Source: a virus
Lineage: Duplodnaviria > Caudoviricetes
Direction: 5' to 3' (one strand)
IMG/VR virus record: IMGVR_UViG_3300031519_000039
Coordinates: 1-46,345 of that record
Length of the DNA stretch: 46,345 nucleotides
Every line of letters starts with the position of its first letter. Position 1 is the stretch's first letter. Positions 14,721-37,580 of this stretch are shown here, in pieces. The translations under genes and the position numbers were made by a program. The notes beneath the pieces were generated by a model. The model was not told the origin of the DNA. It saw only the letters and a program-made list of their open reading frames with translations, and did not search any database.

Positions 14721-15258
14721 ATATTCAGGCAAAAACCGGATAATTGATAATCCGTTTGATATGGATGTGCTTGATTTAATTATGGAAAATAGCACTGAAC
14801 CAGCTCGCTTACTCGGTAAAGAGAAAAAGAATTGGGTAAAACGTTTACCACCTTTTGGACAACAATATCTTAATAAGCATATAGACTGTTTCAAAGGGAG
14901 ATGGGAGTTTGAGCTTTTTCATTCGGAAGTCAACGTTCTTTATCATACTGATACTATACTTGGTAATGATGGGGATCTTGGTATTATCATACCATTGGAC
15001 TGGAAACCATTTCATGAAGTACCAGCAACTATTATGTACAAATGGTGGTCTGACCGAAGAGTCATGTACGCCGGTAACGGTGAAATCAAATATCAAGATA
15101 CAAATGAAATAGCTTTACTTGAAAAAGAAGTACCAGAAATAGATCTCATATTTGGTTGGTCATTAGATAAAGCTCTTATTTTTGATTGTAAACAACTACA
15201 TTCAGCTAAGAAATTTACAGAAGGCTGGAAGGAATTTATCATTGGCTTCGTCGTATAA
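14698..15258 (+). CDS. 2OG-Fe(II) dioxygenase-like (DSBH fold) protein
   Basis: HxD (YHTD), GIIIPL and a distal His in ALIFDCKQLHSA. Confidence 0.55.
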   Translation: MSSGTRNRYSGKNRIIDNPFDMDVLDLIMENSTEPARLLGKEKKNWVKRLPPFGQQYLNKHIDCFKGRWEFELFHSEVNVLYHTDTILGNDGDLGIIIPLDWKPFHEVPATIMYKWWSDRRVMYAGNGEIKYQDTNEIALLEKEVPEIDLIFGWSLDKALIFDCKQLHSAKKFTEGWKEFIIGFVV

Positions 15259-16474: not shown

Positions 16475-17652
16475 AGTGTAAATTAGCGTGGACGCACTTA
16501 GACTTTAAACCCGGTGGATACGCACCGTGTTATAGATTTAAGTTATATGATGGACACCAGTTTGGCAATGTTCCGGATATGCCGGATGTTAATTCGCCAG
16601 AATGGATACGTGTACGTGAACAGCTAAGTAATGATGAATGGCCTGATGAATGCGTAGATTGTAAAATCCAAGAAGAAAGTGGAATACAATCTTATCGGCA
16701 AAGATCGGAGAATTTACTTGTTACTGAACCGGATTATACGAAAAATCATGTGCAGGTCAAAGACCTCCAGCTCAAACTCAACCGCGCCTGTAACTTACAA
16801 TGCAGGCACTGTACGGTTGCTTCTAATTCTAACTTCATTAAGGTCGGGAAAGAAAACCCGCAAATAGCAAAGAAGCTATGGGAAGACCATCATTTCGATC
16901 ATATTGTCGAAAGGCATGAGCATCGAATTGATATTCCAACTCCTGAAGTAATAGATCATTTGTTTGAAAACGTGTTACCAACAGTAGAACGTATTGAGTT
17001 TTCTGGTGGTGAGCCATTCTTTCATGTAGAAATGTACAGGTTTCTTCAACGTATGATTGATGATCCTAACATTGATACGTCTCAAATCACACTTATCTAC
17101 AATACTAATATGACATTGACTCGGTTTAAGAAGTATGATATTGTAGAGTTTTGGAAACATTTCAAACGTGCTGATATTACAATCAGTATGGATGGAACTA
17201 CTGACGTGTTTAATTACTTTAGACAAGGTGGTGACTATAACACTGTAATAGATAATATTCACGATATGTTATCACGTACAGATAAAATAGAAAAGCTATT
17301 GCTCGTATGTACTACAACAGCTTATCATGCTTTCTATATGGATAAAATTGATTATGAGCTAGGACTTTTGAAAAGAGTACTAGAATTTAAATACAAAATT
17401 GAAGTAAAGTATCGGCCAACATTTGTGCACTGGCCCGAAGGATTAGACGTAGTCAATCTTGCTGAGTCAACTAAAAAGAATATGTTAAAAACAACGCGTG
17501 ATACCGAGTTTACTAAAGAGTTTAAGTTGAGGCTCCAAGGTAAGCGCACAATACCAAATGAAACATTCAAAGATATAGTAATGCTTCAAGACGAACTTTA
17601 TAACAGAGATGCAAGTGTCTTAGCGCCTAAGATATTTGACTATGTGTACTAA
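16471..17652 (+). CDS. Radical SAM protein with N-terminal twitch-like domain (rSAM-7)
   Basis: KCKLAW..PCY..CVDC, CNLQCRHC, GGEPF and SMDG. Confidence 0.85.
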   Translation: MKCKLAWTHLDFKPGGYAPCYRFKLYDGHQFGNVPDMPDVNSPEWIRVREQLSNDEWPDECVDCKIQEESGIQSYRQRSENLLVTEPDYTKNHVQVKDLQLKLNRACNLQCRHCTVASNSNFIKVGKENPQIAKKLWEDHHFDHIVERHEHRIDIPTPEVIDHLFENVLPTVERIEFSGGEPFFHVEMYRFLQRMIDDPNIDTSQITLIYNTNMTLTRFKKYDIVEFWKHFKRADITISMDGTTDVFNYFRQGGDYNTVIDNIHDMLSRTDKIEKLLLVCTTTAYHAFYMDKIDYELGLLKRVLEFKYKIEVKYRPTFVHWPEGLDVVNLAESTKKNMLKTTRDTEFTKEFKLRLQGKRTIPNETFKDIVMLQDELYNRDASVLAPKIFDYVY

Positions 17653-18179
17653 TGGGAGTGGTTCTAGATAAAAAAGAAATCATTTATTTACGACCGTTTA
17701 AGACTGCAAATACTACTATCAGTAACGCATTAATTCAAGGTCCGGACAAAGGTATTTCATTAACACCGATTGGTGGTATGGGAAATCAAACTTGGAAAGA
17801 AGTCAAAGACAAAGTAAGTTTACACCAATGGCACAACTATACAATTGTTGCAACTATAAGAAACCCATGGGATCAAATGTATGATGTGTGGTCATTTGGA
17901 CAAAGTAATTTATCTTTCTATGATTGGCTAATGACTGAGGAAGCAAAGAAAAAAACACAAAGTTATTTTTTGTTTGATAAACATAAATGTCAGGCTGATA
18001 AAGTTATTCGGTTTGAAAATTTGTATGAAGATGCTAAAAACGTTTTAGGTATCACTATTACCGAACATTTAAACCCATCTCCAAAAGTTGATTATCGTGA
18101 TTATTATAATAGATCTACTCGAGAATATGTAGAGTGGTTATGCAATAAAGAAATTAAGGAATTTGGTTATGAATATTGA
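17652..18179 (+). CDS. Sulfotransferase family 2-like protein
   Basis: RPFKTANTT (PSB-like), IRNPWD, IRFENL and C-terminal FGY. Confidence 0.7.
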   Translation: MGVVLDKKEIIYLRPFKTANTTISNALIQGPDKGISLTPIGGMGNQTWKEVKDKVSLHQWHNYTIVATIRNPWDQMYDVWSFGQSNLSFYDWLMTEEAKKKTQSYFLFDKHKCQADKVIRFENLYEDAKNVLGITITEHLNPSPKVDYRDYYNRSTREYVEWLCNKEIKEFGYEY

Positions 18180-18900
18180 GATACCAGTTTTAACTGAAAA
18201 CGTTATCATTCGTCTATCAGGTGGAGCAGATAGTGCTTTACTTCTTTATATGATATGTGATGAATACGAAAAAGCCGAAAAGCCATTAAACATCTGGCCA
18301 ATAACTGTGCTTCACGGTGTTCGTAATTGGCAAAGTTATCATGCTCAACAAGTAATTGATTGGATGACTGATAAGTTTCCGAATGTTAATTTTATGGAAC
18401 ATGAAGTCTGGCGGTGTGATGACCCAGGTGGCAAACCAGATAGTAAGAACGCAAACAATTATGTTGACTATCAAGAAAAACTTATTGATGGTGTAGTTAG
18501 TGTTGTTAAAGAAACGTGTGCGGTATTTAACGGGGTGACTGCAAATCCGCCAGAAGACATTGGCCAAAAGCATTGGGGAAGCTCAAAAGTATTTGGCGAA
18601 AAGGTTTGGGACGTACGAGAAAAGCATCGAGATTGGCATTTGATTGCTGATAGAAAACCAGTTCAAGACGATGTAGCACGTAAACTAATTCATGTCAATC
18701 CTTTTATTCAACACCACAAAGGTCATGTTGCAGAGCTTTATTATAACTATGAATTAGTTGATACGTTGTTACCTATTACTCGATCGTGTGAAGGCTGGGA
18801 TTATATGACAGAAGGATTTAGTAAAGAATGCGGAGAGTGCTGGTGGTGTATGGAACGGGATTGGGCTTTTAATGTACACAATAAAGAAAGTACATCTTGA
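18169..18900 (+). CDS. QueC-like (7-cyano-7-deazaguanine synthase-like) PP-loop ATPase
   Basis: LSGGADS PP-loop and C-terminal TRSC..CGECWWC..R zinc motif. AAGGA SD before ATG 18169. Confidence 0.7.
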   Translation: MNIEIPVLTENVIIRLSGGADSALLLYMICDEYEKAEKPLNIWPITVLHGVRNWQSYHAQQVIDWMTDKFPNVNFMEHEVWRCDDPGGKPDSKNANNYVDYQEKLIDGVVSVVKETCAVFNGVTANPPEDIGQKHWGSSKVFGEKVWDVREKHRDWHLIADRKPVQDDVARKLIHVNPFIQHHKGHVAELYYNYELVDTLLPITRSCEGWDYMTEGFSKECGECWWCMERDWAFNVHNKESTS

Positions 18901-19858
18901 ATCTACACAGCTTTGTCAGGCCATGTGCCCGATGTGCGATCGAGTTACGCTTGATGGTAAGCTCAATCCGCATTTAAGTAGCGCATCATTATCTATTGAC
19001 GATATTCAAAATATGTTCAGTCCAGACTTCATAGCAAATCTTGATGAAATGTATATGTGTGGCAACCTTGGTGATCCAATGTTAGCACCTGATTGTGTTA
19101 AGATCTTTGAATATTTTCGTACACATAATCCAAAAATATACTTATCAATGAATACAAATGGTGGAGCGCGCAAACCTGAATGGTGGGCTCAACTAGCTAA
19201 AGTAGTAAACCATGTCACGTTTTCAATTGACGGCCTTGAAGATACTAATTCTGTTTACAGAAAAGGCGTAGTGTGGTACAATGTAATAAACAACGTAAAG
19301 GAGTTCATTTATGCTGGTGGAAAAGCAAAATGGGATTATCTGGTCTTTGAGCACAACGAACATCAAATCGAATTGGCACGACAACTATCAGAAGAACTTG
19401 GCTTTGTGGACTTTAGACCAAAAGCAACAAGTCGTTACGATAAAGAAAGGCCAGCGTGGCAATCTTATTGGAGAGGCAGAGCGGCCGAAGTTATCAGACC
19501 TCCAAGTCAATTACAATATCAAAGTGATGTAGTCAATAATCCATTAGAAGATAGACATAAGTTTGACATAAATCCAAAGTGCGTTAAAAATAAAGAAATA
19601 TATGTTTCGGCTACAGGGCACGTGTTCCCTTGTTGTTGGGCACACACATCACTGGCTAGTTCTCAAAATGTTTCAATGGAAGAAAAGCTTGATATTACTT
19701 CAATGGTTGCAGAAAACAATGCAAAAGAAGTAGGAATAAATAAGGCTATAGAATGGTTTGATAATATGTTTGAACGGTGGGACACTGATGATAAGCCATT
19801 TATATGTTCTGCCAAATGTAATGCGAAACAAGACACGGTGAAGTTACAGTATGTATGA
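18872..19858 (+). CDS. Radical SAM protein with C-terminal twitch/SPASM domain (rSAM-8)
   Basis: CQAMCPMC, GNLGDP, NTNGG, SIDG and C-terminal C..IYVSATGHVFPCC..CSAKC. Confidence 0.85.
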   Translation: MYTIKKVHLESTQLCQAMCPMCDRVTLDGKLNPHLSSASLSIDDIQNMFSPDFIANLDEMYMCGNLGDPMLAPDCVKIFEYFRTHNPKIYLSMNTNGGARKPEWWAQLAKVVNHVTFSIDGLEDTNSVYRKGVVWYNVINNVKEFIYAGGKAKWDYLVFEHNEHQIELARQLSEELGFVDFRPKATSRYDKERPAWQSYWRGRAAEVIRPPSQLQYQSDVVNNPLEDRHKFDINPKCVKNKEIYVSATGHVFPCCWAHTSLASSQNVSMEEKLDITSMVAENNAKEVGINKAIEWFDNMFERWDTDDKPFICSAKCNAKQDTVKLQYV

Positions 19859-20915
19859 TGTTAAGATGGTCCACTTTGAGCCTACACAAATGTGTCAGGC
19901 TTCTTGTCCTATGTGTGATAGGAATAAGAATGGTGGAGAAGTAAATCAATATCTTAAAGATGAGTCAATGACTCTTGAAGGTTTCAAAGCTGCGTTTTCA
20001 CGCGAGTTTATTGCCAACCTTGATACATTCTTTTTCTGTGGTAATCACGGCGATCCTATCTTTGCGCCTGACATGTTAGAACAAGCAAAGTTCGTACGTG
20101 AATGTAATCCTACAATCAATATGTTTGTCACTACCAATGGTGGAGCACGAAAGCCTGAGTGGTGGGAAGAACTAGCTCAAGTCGTATCGTTTGTAAATTT
20201 CTCGGTTGATGGATTACAAGACACTAATCATTTCTACAGACAGGGTGTCAAGTGGTCTAATGTTGAAGATAACATGGCTGCCTTCTGCGATGCTGGTGGA
20301 CACGCTAAATGGACATTTCTTGTATTCAATTACAACGAACATCAAATAGAACAAGCTAGAATGTTTTCAAAGATTTTAGGAGTCAAAGACTTTATTGTAA
20401 AGAAGTCAGGACGGTATATCAACACTGCTAATTTACAAAAGAAAGACGATCATCAAGCAGTCTTTCGAAAGAAAGATTCAACACGCTTATCACCACCTAA
20501 GAATCCAAAGTATCGCAATAAAGCAATTGATGAAGACTATGAATCAATTGTCAAAGCTTATGGTTCTATGGACAAGTTTATTGATGTGGCTGAGATTAAA
20601 CCGAAATGTATGCAAAAGAAAGAAATCTATGTATCTGCCGAAGGACTTGTCTTTCCATGTTGTTGGTTAGCTGGTCAAGTATATAAATGGTGGAGACCTA
20701 TAGAAGATTCTCAAGAATATAAAGTCATTCAAAAGACTGGTGGCTTTGAGAAGATTAATGTACACTATACACCTCTTGAAGAGATTATGGAAGGTGATTT
20801 CTTTTCATCAGTAAAAGATAGCTGGGACATTCATGGGGTTGGCCAAGGTAGAATGAAAACGTGTGGATTAAAATGTAATGTAGGTTTTGATCCGTTTGAG
20901 GCGCAATGGAAATGA
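19851..20915 (+). CDS. Radical SAM protein with C-terminal twitch/SPASM domain (rSAM-9)
   Basis: CQASCPMC, GNHGDP and C..IYVSAEGLVFPCC..CGLKC. Close paralog of rSAM-8. Confidence 0.85.
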   Translation: MYDVKMVHFEPTQMCQASCPMCDRNKNGGEVNQYLKDESMTLEGFKAAFSREFIANLDTFFFCGNHGDPIFAPDMLEQAKFVRECNPTINMFVTTNGGARKPEWWEELAQVVSFVNFSVDGLQDTNHFYRQGVKWSNVEDNMAAFCDAGGHAKWTFLVFNYNEHQIEQARMFSKILGVKDFIVKKSGRYINTANLQKKDDHQAVFRKKDSTRLSPPKNPKYRNKAIDEDYESIVKAYGSMDKFIDVAEIKPKCMQKKEIYVSAEGLVFPCCWLAGQVYKWWRPIEDSQEYKVIQKTGGFEKINVHYTPLEEIMEGDFFSSVKDSWDIHGVGQGRMKTCGLKCNVGFDPFEAQWK

Positions 20916-22273
20916 GAATATTAGGTGTGTCCGAAGGAAGCCACGACGCAGCATGGGCAGTCGTAGAAGATGGTGTTATATTAGAAGCACACCATGTTGA
21001 ACGGCATACTCGTGAAAAGAACGATAAGTGGATTCCCGGTAAGCTGTTACCGGGTTATGACTTAATAATTGGTCATGAAAACAAAGATAGAGTTAACGAT
21101 AGACGCGCAGCTGCTGGCCAAAGGTATTACTCACCAAACATTATAACTAATTTTGAATATAATCATTATGAAACGCATGCATGGGCTGGATGGGCAACAG
21201 CGCCTTTCAAAGATTGTGATATTCTTTGTATTGATGCTATTGGTGAAAACGAAACAGCTGCAGTATTTGAAGTAAGGAATGGAATATTCACTAAGACTTG
21301 GGATATGAAATATCCTCAAAGCATTGGTCTTATCTATTCAGCCGTGACACATGCTCTTGGTTATAAGCCTATGGAAGAAGAATATATTGTAATGGGCCTT
21401 GCTGCTTATGGCGAACCAGTATATAATTTAGATCATTTACTGAGTTTGAATTGTCATAAAGGATTAAGCATAGGCGCTATTACAACCGATACATCGTTAT
21501 TAGGCGGAGGAACACATACAAAGAAACCTGAAGATATTGCAGCCTCGGTACAACTATTATATGAAAACGAATTACTTAAACTAATTAATAAATACTGTAA
21601 ACATCCTAATCTTATCTTAATGGGTGGATGCGCTCTTAATTGTGTAGCTAATTCAAAAATTAAAAGAAAGAATATTTGGATTATGCCTAACCCTGGCGAT
21701 GCTGGTTCTTCGTTAGGAGCCGCGGCTAGACATTTTGGTCATCAGCTTATTTGGAAAGGACCGTACCTTGGCACTAATATCGAAAATGAAATCAATCCTC
21801 GTGACGTGGCTCGATATCTTTTTGAGCATAGTGTGTGTGGTGTGGCTAATGGCCGTGCTGAGTTTGGCCCTCGCGCCCTTGGTAATCGTAGTCTTATTGC
21901 TGACCCCCGTTGCGATGTTAAAGATACGGTTAACGAAATCAAACGAAGACAAAAGTTCAGACCATTTGCACCGGCAATCTTAGAAGAATATCAGTATGAA
22001 TATTTTGAAGGTCCAATGAATGAGTATATGCAGTTTACAGCAAAAGCAAAACACGATTATAAATCAGTTACGCACATAGATGGTACTGCTCGAGTGCAAG
22101 TAGTTCATCGTAATTGTAAATCTGTTATTAGACCAATACTTGAAGAATGGTATGAATTAACTGGTTGTCCAATGTTATTGAATACGAGTTTAAATATTAA
22201 AGGACAACCAATGGTAGATACTTGGGAACATGCTCAAGAATTTGAAAGAAAATATAATGTCAAAGTTTTCTAA
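20912..22273 (+). CDS. O-carbamoyltransferase (NodU/CmcH/TobZ family)
   Basis: ILG...HD, HYETHA, GGCALN, GDAG, EFGPRALGNRS, RPFAP, HIDGTARVQ and LLNTSLN. Confidence 0.9.
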   Translation: MRILGVSEGSHDAAWAVVEDGVILEAHHVERHTREKNDKWIPGKLLPGYDLIIGHENKDRVNDRRAAAGQRYYSPNIITNFEYNHYETHAWAGWATAPFKDCDILCIDAIGENETAAVFEVRNGIFTKTWDMKYPQSIGLIYSAVTHALGYKPMEEEYIVMGLAAYGEPVYNLDHLLSLNCHKGLSIGAITTDTSLLGGGTHTKKPEDIAASVQLLYENELLKLINKYCKHPNLILMGGCALNCVANSKIKRKNIWIMPNPGDAGSSLGAAARHFGHQLIWKGPYLGTNIENEINPRDVARYLFEHSVCGVANGRAEFGPRALGNRSLIADPRCDVKDTVNEIKRRQKFRPFAPAILEEYQYEYFEGPMNEYMQFTAKAKHDYKSVTHIDGTARVQVVHRNCKSVIRPILEEWYELTGCPMLLNTSLNIKGQPMVDTWEHAQEFERKYNVKVF

Positions 22274-23141
22274 AAAATTATTAATTGCAGGCGGCTGTAG
22301 CTGGACATCTCCATGGGAACCGTATTATAAAGAAGCTGGCATGAAAGCTGTTTGGCCGAATCACGTAGCTGACTGGTTTGAATGGGATCTATTAAATGTT
22401 GGTCATGGTGGTGCATCTAATGATATGATTCATAATAGAGTGATTGACGCTATTACAGAAAACGAAGATAGAGATATTGTTGTAATGGTTGCATGGTCTC
22501 AAGCTATGAGATTGGCTATTTTTGATATGCCAATAGCACAAATGACTTTTAATGTATTCATGCCAGATTTATCGCCACCATTTGGTAAAGGAAAAACAGA
22601 TTGTCAGCAAGCGCTAAGAACGTTATTGCAACATCATGTTCATGAGTTTGGCGGAGATCTTATTGGTCCAGACAGTATAGACGGAACTACAGGTGTCCCA
22701 GTTGGAGTATCTCGATCTGATCACTACCGCATGATTGCTCGGTGGTCAATACGGCACATCTATATGCTAAATGAATACTGTATATCTAAAGGCATTCCAA
22801 TTATTCATCACAGAGCACTCAATATACTAAATGGCATTGAATGGGTAATGGATCCTGAAGTCAATATGAAAAACAGAAATAAAGTTTATGAAGCTGTTAA
22901 CGATGACAGCCGAATCAATATCATCTATAACAAAATAAAAACATGGGATAACGTAGTCGGCCCACATTTATTTGAGCCTGAAAGCTCATGCTATGAATTA
23001 TATCCACAATACTTTCTTAGTAGACAAGAACAACACCCAAATGCTAGAGGAATGCAATTGATTGCTCATAGTTTTGTAAATAAGTTCATTGAACGATATG
23101 AAGAAAAAGCAAAGACCGAAGCGGATTATGTCTATGACTAG
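22257..23141 (+). CDS. SGNH/GDSL-like hydrolase or acyltransferase-like protein (paralog 1)
   Basis: Block I-like GGCSWT, block II-like GGASN and block V-like HPN. Start taken at ATG 22257. Confidence 0.55.
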   Translation: MSKFSKKLLIAGGCSWTSPWEPYYKEAGMKAVWPNHVADWFEWDLLNVGHGGASNDMIHNRVIDAITENEDRDIVVMVAWSQAMRLAIFDMPIAQMTFNVFMPDLSPPFGKGKTDCQQALRTLLQHHVHEFGGDLIGPDSIDGTTGVPVGVSRSDHYRMIARWSIRHIYMLNEYCISKGIPIIHHRALNILNGIEWVMDPEVNMKNRNKVYEAVNDDSRINIIYNKIKTWDNVVGPHLFEPESSCYELYPQYFLSRQEQHPNARGMQLIAHSFVNKFIERYEEKAKTEADYVYD

Positions 23142-23835
23142 ACTACTTATAACTGGCGGTTGCAGCATCACTGATCAAAAAACAAACGATTATTTGTATG
23201 AAGGCGGAGTGTTTACTTGGCCAACAGCAGTAGCTGATTATATGGAATCTAAATTACTCAATGTAGCAAAGCGTGGTAGAGGCAATGACTACATAGAAAA
23301 TATGATATTTGACGCAATATTAGAAAATCATGATAAGTATGATTGCACTGTAATGGTGTATTGGACCGAAGCATATAGAGTAAATCTTTTCGATACTGAT
23401 ACACTTTGGGATTATAGCCGTGGAAATCAAAACGAATTAATGTATCAAGGTATTTGTCAAAAAGATGCTATTAATATGTCTTTTCGTAATATGAGAAGAT
23501 TAAAGTTAGTATGTGATAGCTTCAATATTCCATGTTATTACCGATTAAATCAAGGGTTTCATGCTAAAGTAAAAGGTCAAGAAGATGTGTATGATTGGCT
23601 AGCTGATCACCCTGCTATAACTGAATTTAATTTATCTTACGCTGAAGTTTTATCTGGTAGATTATCTAATCATAATGATAAAAATAAACATCAATGGCAA
23701 ACTTTACCAGATGCGCATCCTAATCAAAAAGGTCAAGATGAAATAGCAAAAATGTTTATAGATACGATGAATGGCACAATTTTAGACGATATTGAGCCAA
23801 CACCGTTATTAATTGATAGGTTTGTTTATGACTAA
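23134..23835 (+). CDS. SGNH/GDSL-like protein (paralog 2)
   Basis: GGCSIT, GRGN and DAHPN. Start overlaps the upstream stop. Confidence 0.55.
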   Translation: MTRLLITGGCSITDQKTNDYLYEGGVFTWPTAVADYMESKLLNVAKRGRGNDYIENMIFDAILENHDKYDCTVMVYWTEAYRVNLFDTDTLWDYSRGNQNELMYQGICQKDAINMSFRNMRRLKLVCDSFNIPCYYRLNQGFHAKVKGQEDVYDWLADHPAITEFNLSYAEVLSGRLSNHNDKNKHQWQTLPDAHPNQKGQDEIAKMFIDTMNGTILDDIEPTPLLIDRFVYD

Positions 23836-24535
23836 GCTTATTATAACTGGTGGTTGCAGTGTTGGAGATCAGGAATGTAAAGATTATAAAACTGAAGGTG
23901 GTGTGACTGTATGGCCAACATTATTATCTGAGTTAACAAATACTAAAGTTCTAAATGTTAGTAAACAAGGTATGGGTAATGATTACATTGAAAACACCGT
24001 GTTTGATGCTATACTTAAAAACAAAGATAAGTATGATTGTACAGTTTTAGTATATTGGACAGAATCATTACGCATAAACTTATTTGATACACACACTAAC
24101 ATGGAAATCAAAAAAATAATATGTGATTCAGAAACAGATATATGTGTGTCGTCTTTAGGATATGATCCTTATACAGTTATTAATAAAAACTTTCGTAATA
24201 TGAAAAGAATACAATTAATTTGCAATAAATTTAACATCAAATGCTATCACCGATTAGTTTATGGTTTTTCACACGGTTCTGCAGTTTTAAAAAAGTGGCT
24301 TGGTAATCATCCTGCTATTGAAGAATTTAACTTATCATATTTTGAATTGATCGGTGGCAGATGGTCGAATCGCAATAATCATATGATGGAAAACAATCAA
24401 TTGCATGGTGGTCATCCAAATCAAAAGATGCAATATGAAATTGCTAATATGTTTATAGATACAATGAATGATGTTAATATGGAAAGATTAGAAAAGCCAG
24501 CTGAAATGTCTGGACGAGATTTTGTTTATGACTGA
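23828..24535 (+). CDS. SGNH/GDSL-like protein (paralog 3)
   Basis: GGCSVG, GMGN and GGHPN. Clearly similar to paralog 2 (NDYIEN..FDAIL, DKYDCTV.VYWTE). Confidence 0.55.
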   Translation: MTKLIITGGCSVGDQECKDYKTEGGVTVWPTLLSELTNTKVLNVSKQGMGNDYIENTVFDAILKNKDKYDCTVLVYWTESLRINLFDTHTNMEIKKIICDSETDICVSSLGYDPYTVINKNFRNMKRIQLICNKFNIKCYHRLVYGFSHGSAVLKKWLGNHPAIEEFNLSYFELIGGRWSNRNNHMMENNQLHGGHPNQKMQYEIANMFIDTMNDVNMERLEKPAEMSGRDFVYD

Positions 24536-25628
24536 TTTGAAATGGAGTCAATACGACTTCACAAAAATACCACTTGATAAAATTGTAAAAGTCGGTCAAA
24601 GGACTATGCTGCATCGTGACTTGTTCACTGTGAGCTGGTTGCTTGGTCGTTTTTGTAATTACTCATGTTCTTATTGTTGGCCATACGCATCAAGCCGTAC
24701 AAAAGACCATAGACCAATTGATTTGATTCTTATGACAATTGACGAAATTAAACGTCAGTCACGTGGTAATGGCTATAATTCTTTTCATTTTAGTTTTAGC
24801 GGTGGTGAACCTACATTCCATCCACAGTATTTAGAAATTATGCAATATCTTGCTGATGACGTGCCTGAGTGTAATTATCATTCAGTTCATATGACATCTA
24901 ACATTTCACGTAAAATGAAATGGTTTGAAGAATACGCTGCAATTTGCAGTAAGTTTCACAGGTCAAGTATCACAGCCTCGTGTCATAGAGAACATGTAGA
25001 TACACAAGCCAAAGTTGCGGAGTTTGCCGACAAGTTAGAATATTGCCAAAGCCAAGACATTCAAGTAACAATCAATCAAGTGATGCTGCCGGATCTATTT
25101 GAGCAATGTTGGGAAGACGCGTTATACTTCCATGAAAGAGGAATCAATGTCACTCTTAAACCTCAGTCTGATCCTACTGCTAGTTTTATCGTCGATGGTT
25201 ATACTGACAATATGCTTGAACGCTTACGCAACGGCATGCCTCAACGAGGATATACCGATCAGAAAAAAGAAATCATTAGACCTAAACCAAAAGAACAATT
25301 AGATCTACGGTACGAAACTACTGGTGTTCCACAACATATGCAAGTAGAATTAGAAGATGATGAAGGAAAAAAGTGGTATATGGATCAAGCTGAGCGATTC
25401 AACACTTTTGAATTCAATAAGTTTAAAGGATGGAGCTGCGAGTCTGGCTATCGTAGTATTATTATCCGAGAACCTGATGGTTCTATTAAACGTAGCTATT
25501 CCTGTGATGATGAACCATTAGGTAATATTGCCACTGGATTCAAATTATTTGATAAACCAATGCCATGTATCACAAATAGTTGTGTTTCTTCTGCTGATTC
25601 TAAGATCCCTAAAACCAAAATTGTATAA
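24528..25628 (+). CDS. Radical SAM protein with C-terminal Cys cluster (rSAM-10)
   Basis: CNYSCSYC, GGEPT, MTSN and C-terminal CESG..SC..CITNSC. Confidence 0.85.
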   Translation: MTDLKWSQYDFTKIPLDKIVKVGQRTMLHRDLFTVSWLLGRFCNYSCSYCWPYASSRTKDHRPIDLILMTIDEIKRQSRGNGYNSFHFSFSGGEPTFHPQYLEIMQYLADDVPECNYHSVHMTSNISRKMKWFEEYAAICSKFHRSSITASCHREHVDTQAKVAEFADKLEYCQSQDIQVTINQVMLPDLFEQCWEDALYFHERGINVTLKPQSDPTASFIVDGYTDNMLERLRNGMPQRGYTDQKKEIIRPKPKEQLDLRYETTGVPQHMQVELEDDEGKKWYMDQAERFNTFEFNKFKGWSCESGYRSIIIREPDGSIKRSYSCDDEPLGNIATGFKLFDKPMPCITNSCVSSADSKIPKTKIV

Positions 25629-25685: not shown

Positions 25686-26042
25686 ATGGCTCAGTACGAA
25701 GAAATTACTATAGATCAAGGTAGCGACGTGGCTATTCAACTAGAGTTGATAGATCACACAGGCGCGGCCAAGTCTTTGATTAATCATTCAATTGCAGCAA
25801 AGATGAAAAAGAATTATAATTCTGTAGACTCAGCTGATATTCAGAACTTCTCCACAATTGTCGCGACACCGTCCACTGCTGGTATTTGCACGCTTTCTTT
25901 AACTAATTCTCAAACCGATGCGCTAAAAGCTGGACGGTACGTATATGATGTAGAAATTTCTTTTATCGATAGTGATAGTCAAACTATTGTTGAAAGAATC
26001 CTTGAAGGCCGGATCCAAGTTACGCCATCAGTCACTAAATAG
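25686..26042 (+). CDS. Small virion structural protein (BppU-like / fibre-attachment domain)
   Basis: TIDQG..., SLTNSQT..L.AGRYVYDVEI..RILEG, a pattern common in marine T4-like phages. Follows a late promoter and contains 3 DS. Confidence 0.65.
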   Translation: MAQYEEITIDQGSDVAIQLELIDHTGAAKSLINHSIAAKMKKNYNSVDSADIQNFSTIVATPSTAGICTLSLTNSQTDALKAGRYVYDVEISFIDSDSQTIVERILEGRIQVTPSVTK

Positions 26043-26050: not shown

Positions 26051-29000
26051 ATGGCCGAAAAAAGGACTTACGTTAAAAGAATTACAGTTGGCCGACCGGT
26101 CAAAAGTATTAACGAAGCTGCGTCTGGTGTTGTTATCGGCTCCGGCCGGATAGCCGGCGATATTCTTGTTAACAAATCATCTACCAATTTATTTGAGCCA
26201 GGGTCGTTAGTTGCAGGCCACGGCCTTGATAAATCGTATGGTGATAGTAACTCAAACAATATTGTAATGTCTATTGACTCATCTGAGTTAAAAGAGATTA
26301 TCGATTCTGATTATATTAAATTTATGACAGGGCAGGCTACTACTCGGAACTTTGTAGATTCCGCGTATGTTGAAGCTAACTCTCTTGATTCTGAAAGAGG
26401 CTTAAATTTATTCCGCAACGATTTAGCTGCACTTACCACTTCTATTGTTCCAGACGTTGATAGCGCGATTGATCTTGGTTCTCAAACTAAGAAGTTCCGT
26501 AAATTATTCTTATCAGGAAATACTATCAAACTTGGCACACTGAATATAAGTGATTCTGGTGGAATCTTTGTAGTACGCGATTCAGATAATAACAACACAA
26601 AACTTGATCTTTCTGCTAACTCAACAAATGATTTATTAGAAAGTGATAACTTATACTATACAAGAGCTCGGTTTGATTCAGCTTTAGGTGATACTACATC
26701 TAAAGGAACAATTCGTGGATATATCAATTTAGCTGGTGCACCAGCTGGCGACGGATCACTAACATACGATTCGGGCTCTGGCCAGTTAACATACACTGGA
26801 CCAAGCCCTGCTGAAGTAAGAGCTCATTTCTTGGCAGTTGATTCCGGTGGAGATGGAGCTTTTTCTTACGAACAAGCAACTGGTAAATTCATATATCGTG
26901 GACCAAGCGCTACCGAAGTAAGGAAACATCTTAACATTGTCGATGCTGGCGGTGATGGATCGTTGGCATATGACTCAGCTCTAGGAAAGTTAACGTACAC
27001 TGGACCGTCTGCTACTGAAGTTAGAAGACATTTTAATACTGCAATTGCAAGTGGTGATGGCTTCCTTGCTTATGATTCGGCATTAGGTAAGTTTACATAT
27101 ACTGGACCATCGGCAGATTCTATTAGATCGCACTTCTCGGCAGCTGGTGATTTAACATATAACTCTGGTACTGGTGAATTTAGCTTTAACGTTGAAACAG
27201 TATACACACAGGCTAATTTCGAATCAGATCTAAGCTTATCATTGAATGCTACAAATGGTATTGCATACGATTCAGCTAAACACAAACTATCGCTAATAAA
27301 CACTGGTGTTGATTCAGCAATTTATGGCTCATCAACTCGAGTGCCGATTCTTACAGTTAACGCACAAGGTAGAATTGATTCTGCTGGTTCTGTATTAGTA
27401 GCTGGTGTAACTGGTGTAACATTTGATTCTGCTACTGAAAAACTTACAATTAGCACTGCAGATGGTGGTTCATTCTCTACAGCAATAGGTGGATATGATA
27501 ATCTTCAGGCTACTACATTTACAGGCACAAATGCTGCAATTGATTCTGCGGTAATATCGTTTATCTCAGGCGGTCATGCTAATTACGATTCAGCTCATAT
27601 CAGTCAATTACTAGTTGATTCTGGTCGGTTTACAGTACTTACATCGCCTAATATAACTGCAGATTCAGCAATTGCCAATAACATATCAGGTAATAATTTA
27701 AATTATGGTATCGGCCGAATTGGTCAGTTCAACGCAGATTCTGCTGAAACTGTTAATCTAAGAGTATCAGGCAGTCTTATAGTTGCCGGTTCGCAATCAA
27801 TTATTAATACCGAAGTATTTAAAGTCACAGATCCGCTTATTCACTTAGCTGATAGTAATGTAATAAGTGATATTATCGATATTGGATTTATTGGTAAGTA
27901 TTATGCTGATGCACAGCAAAGACACACTGGTTTAGTCAGAGATGCTAGCGCTGGCCAGTATTATCTATTTGATAATAGCATAGATTCTGCTTCTGATTCA
28001 GTTAATACTATTAATCTTGGCGCAACTGGTTTTAGAAAAGCATGGCTTAACGTTGGTAATATTATAGCTGATTCGGCTACTATGACTAACCTAACAGTTA
28101 CTGGTTTAGCATCAACAACTCTTGCAAGAACAGCAACAGTTGATTCTGGTACGTACGGTTCTGCAACGAGAGTTCCAATTCTAACAGTTAATACTTCTGG
28201 ATTCATTGATAGTATTGGTGAAGTATTAGTTGCAGGAGTTACAGGATTAACTTACGATTCGAATACTGAAAGTATCACGATATCGACTGCTGATGGTGGT
28301 TCATTCGCAACACATATTGGTGGATTCAAAAATATAGATGTAGATTCTGCTAATATATTCAATATAGCTGGTAGTAATATTCACTATGACTCAGGTTTTA
28401 TTGGTCAATTTAGTACTGATTCTGCGCATATATCGCAACTCAATACTACGGTTGTAAGAGCAGGTGGAATTCTTGCAGACTCTGGTGATTACACAGTACT
28501 TAAAATTGGTGGTGCTCATGTCAACACCGAGATGTTTACTGATTCGGCCTTTGTTTTAGCACGAATCGAAGCGTTATCGCTTGACTCTGAAAGAACAATT
28601 AATCTTATTAGAAATGATAATCTGTTTGTTGATTCAGCTTATATCGAGCAAGTTTCACTTGACTCTGAAAGAGCAGTCAATTTAATTGATTCAAATTATA
28701 TCAATGAACGTTCACATCAACTTACTCGTGATGAATTTTCATTTACACTGACAAATGCTGGATCAGCCGCTGGTCCAAGAATCGTACTTGATAGAAACAG
28801 CTCAAGCGCAGCAGATTCTGATGCTCTAGCAATGATTGAATTCCGTGGTAGAAACGATGCGGATTCTAATATAACATATGCTAAGATCGAAAACTTTATT
28901 AACGATGCATCAGCTGATAGCGAAGATGGTGAGTTACACTTTACTATAAAACAATCTGGTATACTTAGAACAAAGATGAAAATGACTCCAACCGGTATTG

Positions 29001-29338
29001 TACTGGCTGGAAACGAAAGAATAATGTTTAGCGATGATTCATTCCAACAAGCGCTTATCCCTGGTGACTATACATCCAACCACGGGCTTACACTACCAGA
29101 CTCAACCGGTACGCTTTTAACACGTGAATTCGTATCAAATATTATCGATTCAGATTATATTGGTCTAAGAGCATCATCAACTGGATTTACTCTAGACTTT
29201 GCCGATAGCGCCGGAGCTACAAAAGTAAGTCTTGTAATTCTTCAAGCTGCAACAATCGCAACCGGAGCCGTTATTGGCTTTGGTAACACCGTAACATTAT
29301 TAGACACAGACAGCGCGGCAGTAACTATCTCGCTTTAA
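26051..29338 (+). CDS. Long tail fibre / fibre-like virion protein, extremely Asp-Ser rich
   Basis: 1095 aa, G/S/T/A-rich with internal repeats, NLYYTRARFD and about 47 DS dipeptides (manual count). Late transcription unit. Confidence 0.75.
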   Translation: MAEKRTYVKRITVGRPVKSINEAASGVVIGSGRIAGDILVNKSSTNLFEPGSLVAGHGLDKSYGDSNSNNIVMSIDSSELKEIIDSDYIKFMTGQATTRNFVDSAYVEANSLDSERGLNLFRNDLAALTTSIVPDVDSAIDLGSQTKKFRKLFLSGNTIKLGTLNISDSGGIFVVRDSDNNNTKLDLSANSTNDLLESDNLYYTRARFDSALGDTTSKGTIRGYINLAGAPAGDGSLTYDSGSGQLTYTGPSPAEVRAHFLAVDSGGDGAFSYEQATGKFIYRGPSATEVRKHLNIVDAGGDGSLAYDSALGKLTYTGPSATEVRRHFNTAIASGDGFLAYDSALGKFTYTGPSADSIRSHFSAAGDLTYNSGTGEFSFNVETVYTQANFESDLSLSLNATNGIAYDSAKHKLSLINTGVDSAIYGSSTRVPILTVNAQGRIDSAGSVLVAGVTGVTFDSATEKLTISTADGGSFSTAIGGYDNLQATTFTGTNAAIDSAVISFISGGHANYDSAHISQLLVDSGRFTVLTSPNITADSAIANNISGNNLNYGIGRIGQFNADSAETVNLRVSGSLIVAGSQSIINTEVFKVTDPLIHLADSNVISDIIDIGFIGKYYADAQQRHTGLVRDASAGQYYLFDNSIDSASDSVNTINLGATGFRKAWLNVGNIIADSATMTNLTVTGLASTTLARTATVDSGTYGSATRVPILTVNTSGFIDSIGEVLVAGVTGLTYDSNTESITISTADGGSFATHIGGFKNIDVDSANIFNIAGSNIHYDSGFIGQFSTDSAHISQLNTTVVRAGGILADSGDYTVLKIGGAHVNTEMFTDSAFVLARIEALSLDSERTINLIRNDNLFVDSAYIEQVSLDSERAVNLIDSNYINERSHQLTRDEFSFTLTNAGSAAGPRIVLDRNSSSAADSDALAMIEFRGRNDADSNITYAKIENFINDASADSEDGELHFTIKQSGILRTKMKMTPTGIVLAGNERIMFSDDSFQQALIPGDYTSNHGLTLPDSTGTLLTREFVSNIIDSDYIGLRASSTGFTLDFADSAGATKVSLVILQAATIATGAVIGFGNTVTLLDTDSAAVTISL
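26747..27140 (+). repeat. Four tandem ~32-aa repeats in the fibre (GDG.L.YDS..GK.TY.GPS..EVR.HF)
   Basis: Visible in the translation, followed by a partial fifth unit. Confidence 0.8.
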
Positions 29339-29375: not shown

Positions 29376-30455
29376 ATGGCAGATCGTATTCCACTAATCA
29401 TTGAAGGATCGAGTATTCGAGAGCTCCCGTCGGATGACAGGCTTGATGTTCGAGGAGCGTTAGAAGTCAATGGGCATATAACACCGGGTGCAGACTCGGC
29501 ATATGACATTGGTACTTCAGCGCTAAAATTCAGAGATATATTCTTATCAGCTGGTACAATACACCTTGGTGGCGTTAAGCTACGAGCGGATGGTAATAAA
29601 CTATCGATTCAAGATAGCGCAGGAGTTACTTCAAGTTTAGCTGCAACTTCACAGTTTGTAAGCGGAGATTCGGGATCAAGTCAATTCCGTTTGGCAGTAT
29701 CTGATGCAATATCAGTTGGCACTGGTACTGGATTAGGAAGTTTAGCTTACGATTCGGCTCGAGGTCAATTTACATTGACTGGAGTAACACAAGCTAATGT
29801 TATGTCAACTATGCAAGCAGGCACTGGAGTGGGTATCGATTCTGCCAGCGGTACACTTTCTATCGGTCAAGCTGTAGCAACAACTGACTCAGTAACATTT
29901 GCTGGTTTATATTCTTCAGGTAACGTAATTCTTGGTGGTAACCTCACAGTTAACGGAACAACTACAACAGTCAATTCAACAAATAGTTTAGTTGCTGATC
30001 CTTTAATTGAATTAAATACAGGTGCAACTTCGAACGCTAACGATCTCGGATTTGTATTTGAACGTGGTTCAACTGGTAACAATGCTGCAATTATCTGGGA
30101 CGAGTCTGAAGACAAGTTCAAGATGGGTACAACAACAGCAACAGGTGCTTCAACTGGTGATATGACAGTTGCAACAGGAACTTTGATTGCTAATGTTGAA
30201 GGTAACGTAACTGGTTCATCAGGATCTAGTACTGGTAACGCCGCAACAGCAACTGCATTAGCAACAGCTCGAGCAATCGCTGTTGCTGGAGATGTAACTG
30301 GTACAGCTAACTTTGATGGAACGGCTGGAATTAGTATTACAACCGCTCTTGCTGCTAACACAGTTTCTTCAACAGAATTAGTAAGTGCAAGCACACTACT
30401 CATTAAGAACACAGCTGGTACAACGCTGAAAACAGTAATTGGAGCCGGTAGCTAA
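29376..30455 (+). CDS. Fibre-like virion protein
   Basis: 359 aa with GNLTVNGTTTTVNS, ADPLIEL and GNAATATAL..AR.I fibre motifs. Shares segments with 26051..29338 and 1951..2535. Confidence 0.7.
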   Translation: MADRIPLIIEGSSIRELPSDDRLDVRGALEVNGHITPGADSAYDIGTSALKFRDIFLSAGTIHLGGVKLRADGNKLSIQDSAGVTSSLAATSQFVSGDSGSSQFRLAVSDAISVGTGTGLGSLAYDSARGQFTLTGVTQANVMSTMQAGTGVGIDSASGTLSIGQAVATTDSVTFAGLYSSGNVILGGNLTVNGTTTTVNSTNSLVADPLIELNTGATSNANDLGFVFERGSTGNNAAIIWDESEDKFKMGTTTATGASTGDMTVATGTLIANVEGNVTGSSGSSTGNAATATALATARAIAVAGDVTGTANFDGTAGISITTALAANTVSSTELVSASTLLIKNTAGTTLKTVIGAGS

Positions 30456-31214: not shown

Positions 31215-32105
31215 ATGCGCAATTATTACATAAGAGATAACGTAAGGTCAGAACAAAATCTCTACGAAGATATTGTAATCGAGTCTCTTAAGATTTACGG
31301 TCAAGATGTTTATTATTTACCTCGTGAAACAGTTTACGAGGATAGAGTCTTTGGTGATGAAGTTCCAGCAAAATACAATAACTCATATAAGATAGAAATG
31401 TATATTGACAACACCGAAGGTTTCGACGGTGAAGGAGATCTGTTTACTCGGTTTGGTGTTGAAATACGCGATGAAGCTACATTCGTAGTTTCAAGACGTA
31501 GGTGGGCTCAAACTATTGGTGGAGATAATAACATCAATAGCGAAAGACCACGTGAAGGCGACTTAATCTTTTTACCACTATCTAATTCTATGTTCCAGAT
31601 TACGCACGTAGAACATGAAATGCCTTTTTATCAATTAGCAAATTTGCCAACTTATAAGTGTCGTGCACAATTGTTTGATTATAACAGCGAAGACTTCGAT
31701 ACTGGTATTGAAGAAATTCAAGATATTGAACAAGATCATGCTTACACTTACTTGTTGAAGATACTAGGTGCAAACATAAACAACACGAAACCAATCTTTA
31801 CAGATACTATTATTACACAAAATCAAAGTGGTGTATTGGTTACTGCAGAAGTTGCTAAATATTCAGATTCGGATGGAACAATCCATGCCGTTAACTTCTC
31901 ATCTGCTGATGGTACATTCCGCTTATTCCATGCAGATAGCACAGTTACTGTTGATTCAGCATCGAACATACACACTTTACAGACAGTAAGTGAATTGAAT
32001 AAACTGTCAGAAAACGAACAAAATACAGACTTTGGATCATTTGGTGATGACTTCCTTGATTTTAGTGAAGGCAACCCGTTTGGTGATCCATCAGGGAATG
32101 ATTAA
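31215..32105 (+). CDS. gp14: Neck protein gp14
   Basis: ESLKIYGQDVYYLPR, FG.EIRD, RPREGDLI and C-terminal DFSEGNPFG. Confidence 0.9.
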   Translation: MRNYYIRDNVRSEQNLYEDIVIESLKIYGQDVYYLPRETVYEDRVFGDEVPAKYNNSYKIEMYIDNTEGFDGEGDLFTRFGVEIRDEATFVVSRRRWAQTIGGDNNINSERPREGDLIFLPLSNSMFQITHVEHEMPFYQLANLPTYKCRAQLFDYNSEDFDTGIEEIQDIEQDHAYTYLLKILGANINNTKPIFTDTIITQNQSGVLVTAEVAKYSDSDGTIHAVNFSSADGTFRLFHADSTVTVDSASNIHTLQTVSELNKLSENEQNTDFGSFGDDFLDFSEGNPFGDPSGND

Positions 32106-32724: not shown

Positions 32725-32977
32725 TATGTTTGACTTTGGTTTTACCGCAGTTGATGAAAACGAATTAGAAGCTGTACAAAAAGTTGCAGCAAAAGCTGAA
32801 TCACTTGGTGCAGAAAAACTTAACACTCAAGATAAGATAGATAGACTATATAACGCAATGATTCCATTGTTGAATAATTTGAAGAAAAACCCAGAAAAGG
32901 AGTATATCCTCTGGCCAGATAGATTAACAAAGGTTGAAGCCTTTGAAGATCACTTGACAAAGATATATAAAAGCTAA
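32717..32977 (+). CDS. Conserved hypothetical phage protein
   Basis: FDFGFTAVDE..PLL.NL..NPEK.YI.WP.R. Coupled to gp15 by TAATG. Confidence 0.6.
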   Translation: MDDMFDFGFTAVDENELEAVQKVAAKAESLGAEKLNTQDKIDRLYNAMIPLLNNLKKNPEKEYILWPDRLTKVEAFEDHLTKIYKS

Positions 32978-33771
32978 TGTTTGGTGGACACTTTTATCAC
33001 GAAAAGACAAGGCGAGCAGTTGCTGTATTTGGCAAACTATTTAACAACTTGTATGTTATCCGTAAAAACGGAGATACTGGTGCATCTATTTCTCAAGTTA
33101 AAGTACCATTAGCATATGCTCCTAAAAACAAATATTTAGACCGAATTCGCGAAAACGCAAATTTAGATACAAACACAAAGGTAGCTATTAAGTTACCTCG
33201 CATGTCGTTTGAGATTACGTCATTAGCGTATGACAACTCACGGCAAGTGTCAAAGGTAAACAATTTCACAAGAGTTGGAACGACTGCAGATAATAGAAAT
33301 AAATTCTTTACTGGTGTTCCATATGTTATTTCTTTTCAATTGAATATTTACACAAAAACGCAAGATGACGCTTTACAACTTGTTGAGCAAATTTTACCTA
33401 CGTTTAATCCACAATATTCAATAACCCTTAAACCTTTTACGGATTATCCTGATATTTTAGAGGATGTTCCAATTGCAATAAATAGTGTTAGTTTCCAAGA
33501 CGATTTTGAAGGAGACTTAGGCGCGCGCAGAACTATCATTTATACTCTCGACTTTGAGATGAAAATACGGTTCTATGGTGCAGTTAACACTGGTGAGGTT
33601 GTACGTGATGTAAGAGCTAAGATCTTCGATATTGGATCTGGCCTTAATGATTCAGACTTAAGACTGAAAACTATTCAATTACAACCTAATCCATCAACAT
33701 TAAACATCGTTGCGGATTCAGACTTTGGATTCACACGAACAGATTATAGTGCGGATAGCGATGCTACATGA
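32977..33771 (+). CDS. gp15: Tail sheath stabiliser/terminator gp15
   Basis: HFYH..RR....FG.LFN, VPLAYAPK, LPRMSFE, QLVEQILP.F.P and RRTIIYTL.F. Confidence 0.9.
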   Translation: MFGGHFYHEKTRRAVAVFGKLFNNLYVIRKNGDTGASISQVKVPLAYAPKNKYLDRIRENANLDTNTKVAIKLPRMSFEITSLAYDNSRQVSKVNNFTRVGTTADNRNKFFTGVPYVISFQLNIYTKTQDDALQLVEQILPTFNPQYSITLKPFTDYPDILEDVPIAINSVSFQDDFEGDLGARRTIIYTLDFEMKIRFYGAVNTGEVVRDVRAKIFDIGSGLNDSDLRLKTIQLQPNPSTLNIVADSDFGFTRTDYSADSDAT

Positions 33772-35801: not shown

Positions 35802-37580
35802 ATGGCACTTTTTGCACCATCTCAAAGTCCTGCAGTAATAGTCAAGGAAGTAGATCTGACTGGCGGAGTGCCAAATGTTCAGACTTCAACCGGAGCTTAT
35901 GTAGGCAAGTTTATGTGGGGTCCAGTCGAGCAGGTAACACTAATTGGTAACGAAGAAGAACTAGCTTCAACTTTCGGTACTCCTAATAGCGCCCATTCGA
36001 TTCCCTACCATGACGCAGCGTATTTCCTACGCTATTCAAACGCTTTACAATTAACTCGCATTATAGACTCAAGCGGTATTAACGCGGTTTCAACTACAGG
36101 CCAAACAGCCGCATATGCAGTTGGAACATATTCATCGCCAGTAATTAAAAACCCGACGGCCTTTGACCAACTTACAGCTAACTTGGACTCTGATGGACAT
36201 ACGTTCATCGGTCGTTTCCCAGGTTCACTAGGTAATTCTTTGCGAGTATCTATTTGCCCACCATCAGTAAGTGATTCTGGCTTCGATGCTTGGACCTACA
36301 AAGGTTCATTCGACGCAGCTCCAGGAACATCAGCCTATGCTGCAGCTAATGACGCTACAAATGATGAAGTCCACGTAGCGATTGTTGATATTAACGGCGA
36401 ATTTTCAGGAGCTAAAGGTACAGTCCTTGAAACATACCCTTTCATGTCTGTTGCTAGCAATGCTATCAATGCAGACGACGGTGGAAACATCTATGTTAAA
36501 GACGTAATCAACCAGAACTCTGCATATGTTCACTTTGTTGACTTCGACTCTAACTTCCGCGTATCTGGTAATGCTGGCACAGCAATTACACCGGGAGTAA
36601 CCAAAGCATTCCTTGGTACTGATGCTGGTGAAGCCGCTGTTAACTTTGCTTTTGATTCAGGTGGAAACGCTGATGACCTTAATCTTGGAGATTATCTAAC
36701 AGGATTTGATCTTTACGAAGATAAAGACATAATCGAAGTTGATTTCTTGATTGCACCAGGGTTACAAGCACGTGCAGACCAAACTACAGTTGTTAACGAT
36801 TTGATTGCAATTGCATCTGATCGTAAAGATTGTGTGGTTGTATCTGGTCCGGCTCGGTCAGATATTATTCTTCGCTCTAGCGATGCGGTAATCACACCAG
36901 AAATCGTAGCTACTGCAGCTACATTTACTCGTTCAAGCTACAACATCGTAGCTGGTAACTACTTAAAAGTTTACGATAAGCACAATGATAAGTACATTGA
37001 GATTCCAGCAAGTTCTTCAATTGCAGGTCTTATGGCCGAAACAGATCGTGTTGCAGCTCCTTGGTTCTCACCAGCGGGTACACGTCGTGGACAACTACTT
37101 GGCGTAACATCCGTCAATTACAACCCAAATAAAACCCGTAGAGATACACTTTACAAAGCAGGCATTAACCCAATCGTTAATATGCCGGGTCAAGGTATTA
37201 TCTTATTCGGTGATAAAACTGGTCTAGCAAGACCTTCCGCGTTCGACCGTATTAACGTACGTCGTTTGTTCCTAACTCTTGAGCGTGCCATTGAGCGTGC
37301 GGCCAAGAACGTACTCTTTGAATTCAACGATGAATTTACAAGAGCTGAGTTCGTGAATATCATCGAGCCAGTACTACGTGATGTTAAGGGACGGCGCGGT
37401 ATTACAGACTTCCGTATTATTGCTGATGAAACAGTCAATACTCCGGCAGTTGTAGATCGCAATGAGTTTATTGCTAATATTCTTATTAAGCCAGCTCGCT
37501 CGATTAACTTTATCACTCTCAACTTTGTAGCTGTCCGGACTGGTGTTTCTTTCGAAGAAATCGCTGGTCAGGCATTTTAA
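35802..37580 (+). CDS. gp18: Tail sheath protein gp18
   Basis: SPAV.VKEVDLT, PWFSPAG..RG, FGDKT, SAFDRINVRRLF, FEFNDEFTR and IKPARSINFI.LNFVA. Confidence 0.95.
   Translation: MALFAPSQSPAVIVKEVDLTGGVPNVQTSTGAYVGKFMWGPVEQVTLIGNEEELASTFGTPNSAHSIPYHDAAYFLRYSNALQLTRIIDSSGINAVSTTGQTAAYAVGTYSSPVIKNPTAFDQLTANLDSDGHTFIGRFPGSLGNSLRVSICPPSVSDSGFDAWTYKGSFDAAPGTSAYAAANDATNDEVHVAIVDINGEFSGAKGTVLETYPFMSVASNAINADDGGNIYVKDVINQNSAYVHFVDFDSNFRVSGNAGTAITPGVTKAFLGTDAGEAAVNFAFDSGGNADDLNLGDYLTGFDLYEDKDIIEVDFLIAPGLQARADQTTVVNDLIAIASDRKDCVVVSGPARSDIILRSSDAVITPEIVATAATFTRSSYNIVAGNYLKVYDKHNDKYIEIPASSSIAGLMAETDRVAAPWFSPAGTRRGQLLGVTSVNYNPNKTRRDTLYKAGINPIVNMPGQGIILFGDKTGLARPSAFDRINVRRLFLTLERAIERAAKNVLFEFNDEFTRAEFVNIIEPVLRDVKGRRGITDFRIIADETVNTPAVVDRNEFIANILIKPARSINFITLNFVAVRTGVSFEEIAGQAF

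Follow-up and report, generated by a model that had tools for sequence, protein, structure and literature searches.

Phage virion proteins assemble in the cytoplasm, and those of mycobacteriophages are reportedly glycosylated by phage-encoded glycosyltransferases. The glycosylated positions described for these particles are the C-termini of the capsid and tail tube proteins (Freeman et al. 2023, as cited in PMC12619734 and PMC12582341). In Bacteroidota, general protein O-glycosylation follows the motif D-(S/T)-(A/L/V/I/M/T), in which D, N and E account for less than 1% at the +2 position, and, according to the same source, no other sequence rule is known for O-glycosylation in bacteria (PMC12871550). 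The staphylococcal enzymes SdgB and SdgA glycosylate SD repeats, and a minimal DSD peptide is described as being modified on Ser (PMC8561734). Furthermore, the GT25 domain of the collagen galactosyltransferase GLT25D1 directly glycosylates a short protein motif, with hydroxylysine as the acceptor (PMC12987934). In marine myophages, genes for glycosyltransferases and radical SAM enzymes are now read as modifiers of the host surface or of DNA (PMC7029224, PMC12801897), and modification of the host O-chain has been proposed for the pelagimyophage host recognition cluster (PMC7029224). A literature search, which covered main texts and few subscription journals, brought up no work describing Asp-Ser as a motif of phage virions.

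This paper describes an Asp-Ser (DS) motif in the virion proteins of a clade of marine T4-like phages. The DNA analysed (the window, 46,345 nucleotides) is a 46-kb part of the genome of an uncultured marine T4-like phage, in which an enzyme island lies 5' of a fibre-like gene, and genes for neck, terminase, sheath, tube, portal and capsid proteins lie 3' of it. Among named phages, its capsid protein is closest to that of Phage C48C1 (64%), on which the literature search found no publication, followed by HTVC008M (59%). Bacteroidota seldom use Shine-Dalgarno words, and a Bacteroidota host is therefore weakly disfavoured by the Shine-Dalgarno-like word present at 12 of the 16 window genes. The following features of the window are relevant here.

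1951..2535, + strand: short fibre-like protein, 194 aa; 6 DS, 6/6 DS-small (1.1 expected)
3937..25628: enzyme island, candidate for glycan tailoring
25686..26042, + strand: 118-aa protein 5' of the fibre gene; PHROG match to a fibre assembly protein
26051..29338, + strand: fibre-like virion protein, 1095 aa, 47 DS; DS-[A/S/G/D/E/N] 42 versus 5.0 expected, a family-wide pattern in 43 full-length homologues
29376..30455, + strand: fibre/structural protein, 359 aa; 6 DS, 5 DS-small versus 1.3 expected
31215..32105, + strand: gp14 neck protein; 3 DS, of which 2 DS-small
32977..33771, + strand: gp15 tail terminator; 3 DS-small close to the C-terminus
35802..37580, + strand: gp18 sheath; 5 DS-small, 5/5 at residues 88-290
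41810..43141, + strand: gp23 major capsid protein; 3 DS-small, residues ~128-158

The phage motif resembles that of the Bacteroidota in that Asp directly precedes Ser, Glu is not tolerated before Ser and Ala is common at +2, but it differs in its avoidance of Thr (DT at 0.25x expectation in 43 homologues, where Bacteroidota accept Ser and Thr) and in its +2 rule, with L and M absent, I and V depleted, and D, G, N and E allowed (compared with the motif sections of PMC12871550). Moreover, the Bacteroidota pathway is described there as periplasmic and dependent on a lipid carrier, whereas the phage targets are assembled in the cytoplasm and the candidate enzymes are soluble products of phage genes. 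As in the mycobacteriophage case, sugar on a tailed-phage particle is proposed, here from genes and a motif alone; unlike in the reports on that case, dozens of internal motif sites occur on fibres, baseplate, sheath and capsid, and the tube is spared. In contrast to the tandem SD repeats described for the GT-B enzymes SdgB and SdgA, the phage motifs are dispersed, with DSA dominant and SD at 0.83x. Finally, the pelagimyophage cluster likewise has its glycosyltransferase and radical SAM genes in a variable island that is flanked by VrlC and the neck genes, but the passages describing that cluster make no mention of a virion motif (PMC7029224).

Asp-Ser excess in the fibre-like protein

The 1095-aa protein had no match in Pfam, PHROG, NCBIfam or PDB sequences, and its designation as a fibre is based on where it lies, on what it is composed of and on a single weak match, to the tail fibre of a Roseobacter phage (E 5e-7). 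The sequence-only reading had estimated about 47 DS dipeptides, roughly one per 23 residues, and the exact count in the ORF is indeed 47, or 1 per 23 aa, compared with a mean of 10.3 (sd 2.9, maximum 26) in 20,000 shuffled sequences. Ser is the next residue after 47 of the 88 Asp residues (53%), while the reverse dipeptide SD occurs at chance level (10 times) and DT twice, in line with the earlier statement that about half of the Asp residues precede Ser and that SD is far rarer. The +2 residues (A21 G7 N5 D4 E4 I2 S1 V1 F1 T1) bear out DSA as the commonest context, and the motif is preceded mostly by A10 I8 V8 Y7 L3 T3, plus others. The varied codon usage noted before was likewise recovered, with two codons for Asp (GAT 39, GAC 8) and six for Ser (TCT 18, TCA 15, TCG 5, AGC 4, AGT 3, TCC 2). 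The gene contains no DNA tandem array; protein-level repeats at about 229-360 and at 418-480, the latter recurring at 695-757, hold approximately 11 of the 47 sites (as read from the translation), and the motif thus occurs both inside and outside the repeats, as had been claimed.

Homologues were collected via shared words, a procedure that favours DS-rich matches and makes the set (the best 43 of 120 listed, 626 found) uninformative on the absence of DS. In the pooled 43 homologues DS occurs 1917 times versus 522 expected, with related dipeptides at 0.77x (NS), 0.60x (ES), 0.75x (DP) and 1.0x (NT), and with SD, DD, DN, DE and DT all at or below chance. At +2, A is enriched 4.8x and E, S, G, D and N are also common, I and V are reduced to 0.3x and 0.2x, and K, R, L, M, W and C were not encountered among the ~1,900 homologue DS sites. 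An alignment of 40 rows (39 homologues) revealed conservation of D in 86.7% and of S in 85.0% at DS sites, versus 50-59% for the flanks, and 75% and 77% for Gly and Tyr, respectively. Replacement of S by T was seen in 3.8% at DS sites versus 15.0% at other Ser residues, and of D by N in 1.8% versus 7.7%. The motif is therefore strict, requiring D and not N or E, S and not T, and a small or acidic +2 residue. Across the 39 homologues, 12 of the 47 sites never vary and have the appearance of caps or turns, and the remaining sites turn over. The AlphaFold monomer has a mean pLDDT of 43, which makes it useless for scoring Ser exposure; many DS sites lie at predicted helix starts or hairpins, a placement that would fit a cap and an exposed acceptor alike.

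Distribution of the motif over the virion

Unbiased relatives were gathered through core genes and complemented with eight named isolates, and records are grouped here by the presence of GT25a, a glycosyltransferase gene described in the next section. The residue set DS-[ASGDEN] and the lists of outer and inner proteins were fixed after inspection of records G000 and G001, and the non-fibre outer set consisted of gp7, gp8, VrlC, gp14, gp15, gp18 and gp23, where present per record. In G001, a 123-kb relative with a capsid protein 83% identical to that of the window, DS-[ASGDEN] was found at 86/20.7 (observed/expected) in 13 outer virion proteins and at 53/15.6 when the long fibre was left out, compared with 1/7.8 in 13 inner proteins, 6/12.5 in the island and 24/29.8 elsewhere. 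The non-fibre outer ratio was 1.67-3.64x in 16 clade records (including two near-duplicates), 0.79 in G006, 0.52 in C48C1 and 0.42-1.70x in 9 outgroups, with Melnitz reaching 1.70x on its outer proteins without GT25a. Inner tail proteins were depleted (24/83.5, 0.29x) in 15 GT25a-positive records, compared with 20/32.6 in 8 GT25a-negative records and 41/55.8 in 9 outgroups, and other DS in inner proteins stood at ~0.8 in every group. Exceptions to this inner depletion pattern are C48C1, which lacks GT25a (1/7.4), the outgroup S-SKS1 (2/7.4) and the GT25a-positive G026 (6/7.8).

Within the core proteins the sites are found in variable regions. The DS-small sites of gp18 lie between segments aligning to T4-type gp18 2-89 and 346-655, a region that we take to correspond to the outward domains in T4, and those of gp23 align to T4 gp23 about 152-218, presumably within the outward insertion domain or adjoining it. 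DS occupies 27 sheath columns over 11 sequences, most of them private, although misalignment in loops inflates such column counts; flank conservation was 0.18 versus 0.50 in the sheath, 0.31 versus 0.62 in the capsid and 0.23 versus 0.49 in gp15. Positions orthologous to DS sites of gp7, VrlC, gp15 and gp23 lack DS in the GT25a-negative subclade and the outgroups, and the first DS-small site of gp15 is among those missing there. DS recurs in unrelated folds, and variable loops of the sheath, capsid, neck and baseplate proteins have gained it repeatedly. It is a selected protein motif of outward-facing virion proteins in one marine T4-like clade. The sequence-only reading had named two findings that would speak against it, a count within shuffled expectation and buried turn or metal-binding residues conserved in all homologous fibres; these do not apply in full, the count being far over chance and the orthologous core proteins of relatives being without the motif.

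Separate counts for DSA and DSD, obtained after collapsing repeated 9-mers and dropping records of fewer than 2,500 residues (8 positive, 1 negative), revealed different distributions. DSA amounted to 2.8-11.9x in 18 GT25a-positive records (with two near-duplicate pairs), 0.3-2.3x in 8 GT25a-negative records and 0.3-1.3x in 9 outgroups, compared with 1.8-8.9x, 1.6-6.8x and 0.3-1.1x, respectively, for DSD. Among the GT25a-negative records, the three that keep GT25b had DSD at 5.6-6.8x and the five without it at 1.6-4.0x; the window phage has DSA at 27/2.2 and DSD at 8/1.6. In these counts DTA stood at 0.50x. Shared modules display the switch directly (IIDSAY versus IIDSDF). As a correlation, DSA and the DS of capsid, sheath and baseplate are missing in the lone subclade that lacks GT25a, and DSD stays on its fibres.

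Several further proteins were observed in the relatives. A 1568-aa repeat protein of C48C1 (126305-131011, L391) passes from DS units to DG, DA and DT units towards its C-terminus, and a similar gradient was seen in G046. Two proteins of G004 (44285-45466, 393 aa, and 43648-44259, 203 aa; L347) contain 29 and 16 DS, 1 per 13 residues, the larger one without evident repeats, and a 2855-aa fibre of G027 (36129-44696 of the fetched stretch, L615-L616) has 103 DS-small versus 15.5 expected. A Cys-rich 296-aa protein of G013 (6069-6959, L397) carries five DS grouped in two short segments. Six successive DS-poor ORFs of 326-352 aa 5' of gp13 (L022) are possibly a paralogue array, and the sheath gene of G044 (52655-53901) appears to be split, with stops within the match that may reflect a frameshift, an assembly error or an intron.

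Genes associated with the motif

Extension of lipo-oligosaccharide is the activity of most GT25 enzymes. Phage-encoded glycan genes are present as GT-A-like genes in the window and as GT25, GT8, galactopyranose mutase (Glf) and epimerase genes in G001. A second glycan cluster of G001, at a position outside the window and ~20 kb 5' of the baseplate wedge genes, comprises two GT25 genes, GT8-like genes, Glf and a small gene designated GNGxS, and includes the two candidates below.

G001 22029-22724: GT25a; Pfam GT25 PF01755, 58 bits (cut-off 24), E 1.4e-15
G001 23989-24690: GNGxS gene; Maf/MptE-like lead

The capsid similarity to G001 suggests that the window phage also carries GT25a. Among PDB entries, GT25a is matched best by a stand-alone GT25 (E 3e-5). 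The motifs EHD, WPND and a terminal S-x-T of GT25a are kept in 5/5 sequences. By analogy, EHD and WPND may represent the metal-binding acidic motif and the catalytic Asp, and EHD, PND and S-x-T resemble the EDD, Asp base and STDE lid described for GLT25D1, to which they are putatively equivalent (PMC12987934). The match to the collagen enzyme is weak in sequence (COLGALT1, E 0.06-0.09), and the acceptor in DS would be Ser, not hydroxylysine.

When gene families were screened for presence, the GT25 cluster turned up in the largest number of DS-positive long contigs (7/12), the other five being fragments that seemingly do not reach the GT25 region. The cluster occurred in none of the 10 DS-negative records and was missing in C48C1 as well. 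A search seeded with GT25a retrieved 16 contigs, and all 12 with a structural gene were DS-enriched (1.73-6.10x). Seeding with GNGxS retrieved 20 contigs, of which 14 were measurable; the seven with full-length GT25a had ratios of 1.58-3.58x, and the seven without it 0.37-1.15x. GT25a was found in 0/8 fragments matched by the window baseplate gene, a result that is uninformative since these fragments are 18-32% complete. Those DS-negative records for which baseplate genes were available group in a single subclade (support 1.00) that is nested within the positives; two trees concur on this nesting and differ on the sister of the subclade. The match of GT25a and DS therefore corresponds to one gain and one loss. 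For the same reason of non-independent genomes, the p value of 0.0002 overstates the case for the gene and the motif.

GT8-like, GT266-, GT289- and GT224-type genes were rejected as the writer, being either in GT25a-negative records or missing from positive ones. The GNGxS protein had no Pfam and no PDB match; an Atlas neighbour (score 0.92) has PF01973 in 13% of its members, and this link serves as a lead only. The gene is clade-wide and, by tblastn among 50,697 phage records, was found only in C48C1, apart from a weak match in Mosig, and the G009 fragment has GT25a and no GNGxS match. GNGxS was rejected as the sole writer, as it is found in every record of the subclade from which outer-core DS has disappeared, and for that reason it can account for DSD only.

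The island of the window includes three small GT-A-like genes (two matching PHROG 1962), methyltransferase-like, sulfotransferase, QueC-like and carbamoyltransferase genes, and three SGNH-like genes (by motif). Ten radical SAM genes at 7528-25628, seven of them over the NF033640 twitch cut-off, are interspersed with PLP-enzyme-like, QueC-like, carbamoyltransferase and SGNH-like genes, and similar arrays were seen in G001, G015, G016 and G022. An inverted six-gene block (3937-7480, minus strand) combines the sulfotransferase with the three GT-A-like genes, one methyltransferase-like gene and one gene encoding 139 aa; five of its genes are conserved in G001, and Mosig matches three. The tie between the motif and the adjoining island that the sequence-only reading implied was not supported, and the island was rejected as the writer of DS: the DS-negative Mosig has 5 of the 7 families tested, and the DS-positive G026, G027, G029 and G048 hold none in the fetched baseplate-to-neck stretch.

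Proposed mechanism and alternative explanations

The reading of DS as a sequon for phage-encoded Ser O-glycosylation, perhaps with two sequons and two enzymes, is preferred here with a probability of roughly 0.6. A cytoplasmic glycosyltransferase of the phage would O-glycosylate DS serines before or during assembly, GT25a being the candidate starting transferase for D-S-A(/S/G/N) and either GNGxS or GT25b the possible reader of D-S-D. The variable island adjoining the fibre gene may tailor the glycan, and the resulting coat could shield the particle or alter adsorption; many DS sites probably also cap helices or form turns, positions at which a serine would be exposed. The array of modification sequons suggested earlier is thus the best-supported reading, through the outer/inner distribution and the correlation of DSA with GT25a, and the modification itself stays a prediction from sequence. 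The 12 invariant sites and the DSD ratios of 1.6-4.0x in records without either GT25 are counted against glycosylation. A more far-reaching picture is offered tentatively, with the odds against it: a widespread marine T4-like clade with its own two-address (D-S-A and D-S-D), two-enzyme O-glycosylation by GT25 and a Maf-like enzyme or second GT25, in which hundreds of tailored glycans would cover fibres, baseplate, sheath and capsid, assembly interfaces would be spared, and radical-SAM islands would diversify the glycan. If true, a soluble, motif-reading phage O-glycosyltransferase would represent a second kind of bacterial O-glycosylation rule and a portable tool by which three added residues bring a glycan, many marine myophage glycosyltransferase and radical SAM genes would have a substrate, and abundant marine virions would be sugar-coated. 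The named enzyme and motif allow testing at the peptide level, without phage culture.

Among the alternatives, it is unlikely that DS is a capping or turn motif (Asp N-cap, hairpin turn) with nothing attached, in fibre modules that duplication and shuffling have propagated in a single lineage. The invariant sites, the helix starts and hairpins of the low-confidence model and the fact that DS travels as part of shared modules, IDSAY and YDSxxG among them, agree with this explanation. Asx/ST turns normally accept N, T and P, but NS, DT, DP and NT are not enriched; DS units are replaced by DG, DA and DT further along the C48C1 repeat protein; and the orthologous gp7, VrlC, gp15 and gp23 positions do without DS in the subclade and the outgroups. 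Moreover, a structural motif predicts neither the depletion in inner proteins nor the lineage-wide shift from DSA to DSD.

Still less probable is a modification address with a non-sugar adduct (phosphate, phosphoester, acyl, carbamoyl or sulfate) or with a host enzyme as the writer. The motif statistics are compatible with any Ser modification, and the island does contain sulfotransferase, carbamoyltransferase, SGNH-like and radical SAM genes, but these island families do not track DS and GT25a does. A host writer is weakly opposed by the 12/16 genes with a Shine-Dalgarno-like word, which speak against a Bacteroidota host, and the Bacteroidota system, in the account available, targets non-cytoplasmic proteins and disfavours D, N and E at +2 (PMC12871550).

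DS positions are acidic and outward-facing, as would be expected if the pairs bound Ca or Mg or tuned surface charge and hydration in seawater; this is very improbable given that SD, DD, DN, DE and DT do not exceed chance, that marine outgroups lack the signal and that the strict +2 rule is left unexplained.

Finally, a DNA motif or repeat expansion is refuted as the origin of the excess: GAY-TCN spells GANTC, of which the fibre gene has 48 sites (14.6 per kb versus 2.5 in the island), but these fall into codon phases of 41, 5 and 2, ES likewise spells GANTC and yet shows no enrichment, the TCN share is similar at DS and other Ser (40/47 versus 60/81, p 0.19), and the excess survives the collapse of repeated 9-mers in a gene without a tandem array. 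The phase bias, the lack of ES enrichment and the similar Ser codon choice indicate selection on the protein, and together with the shuffles and the conservation among homologues they uphold the earlier claim of protein-level selection as opposed to DNA repeat expansion.
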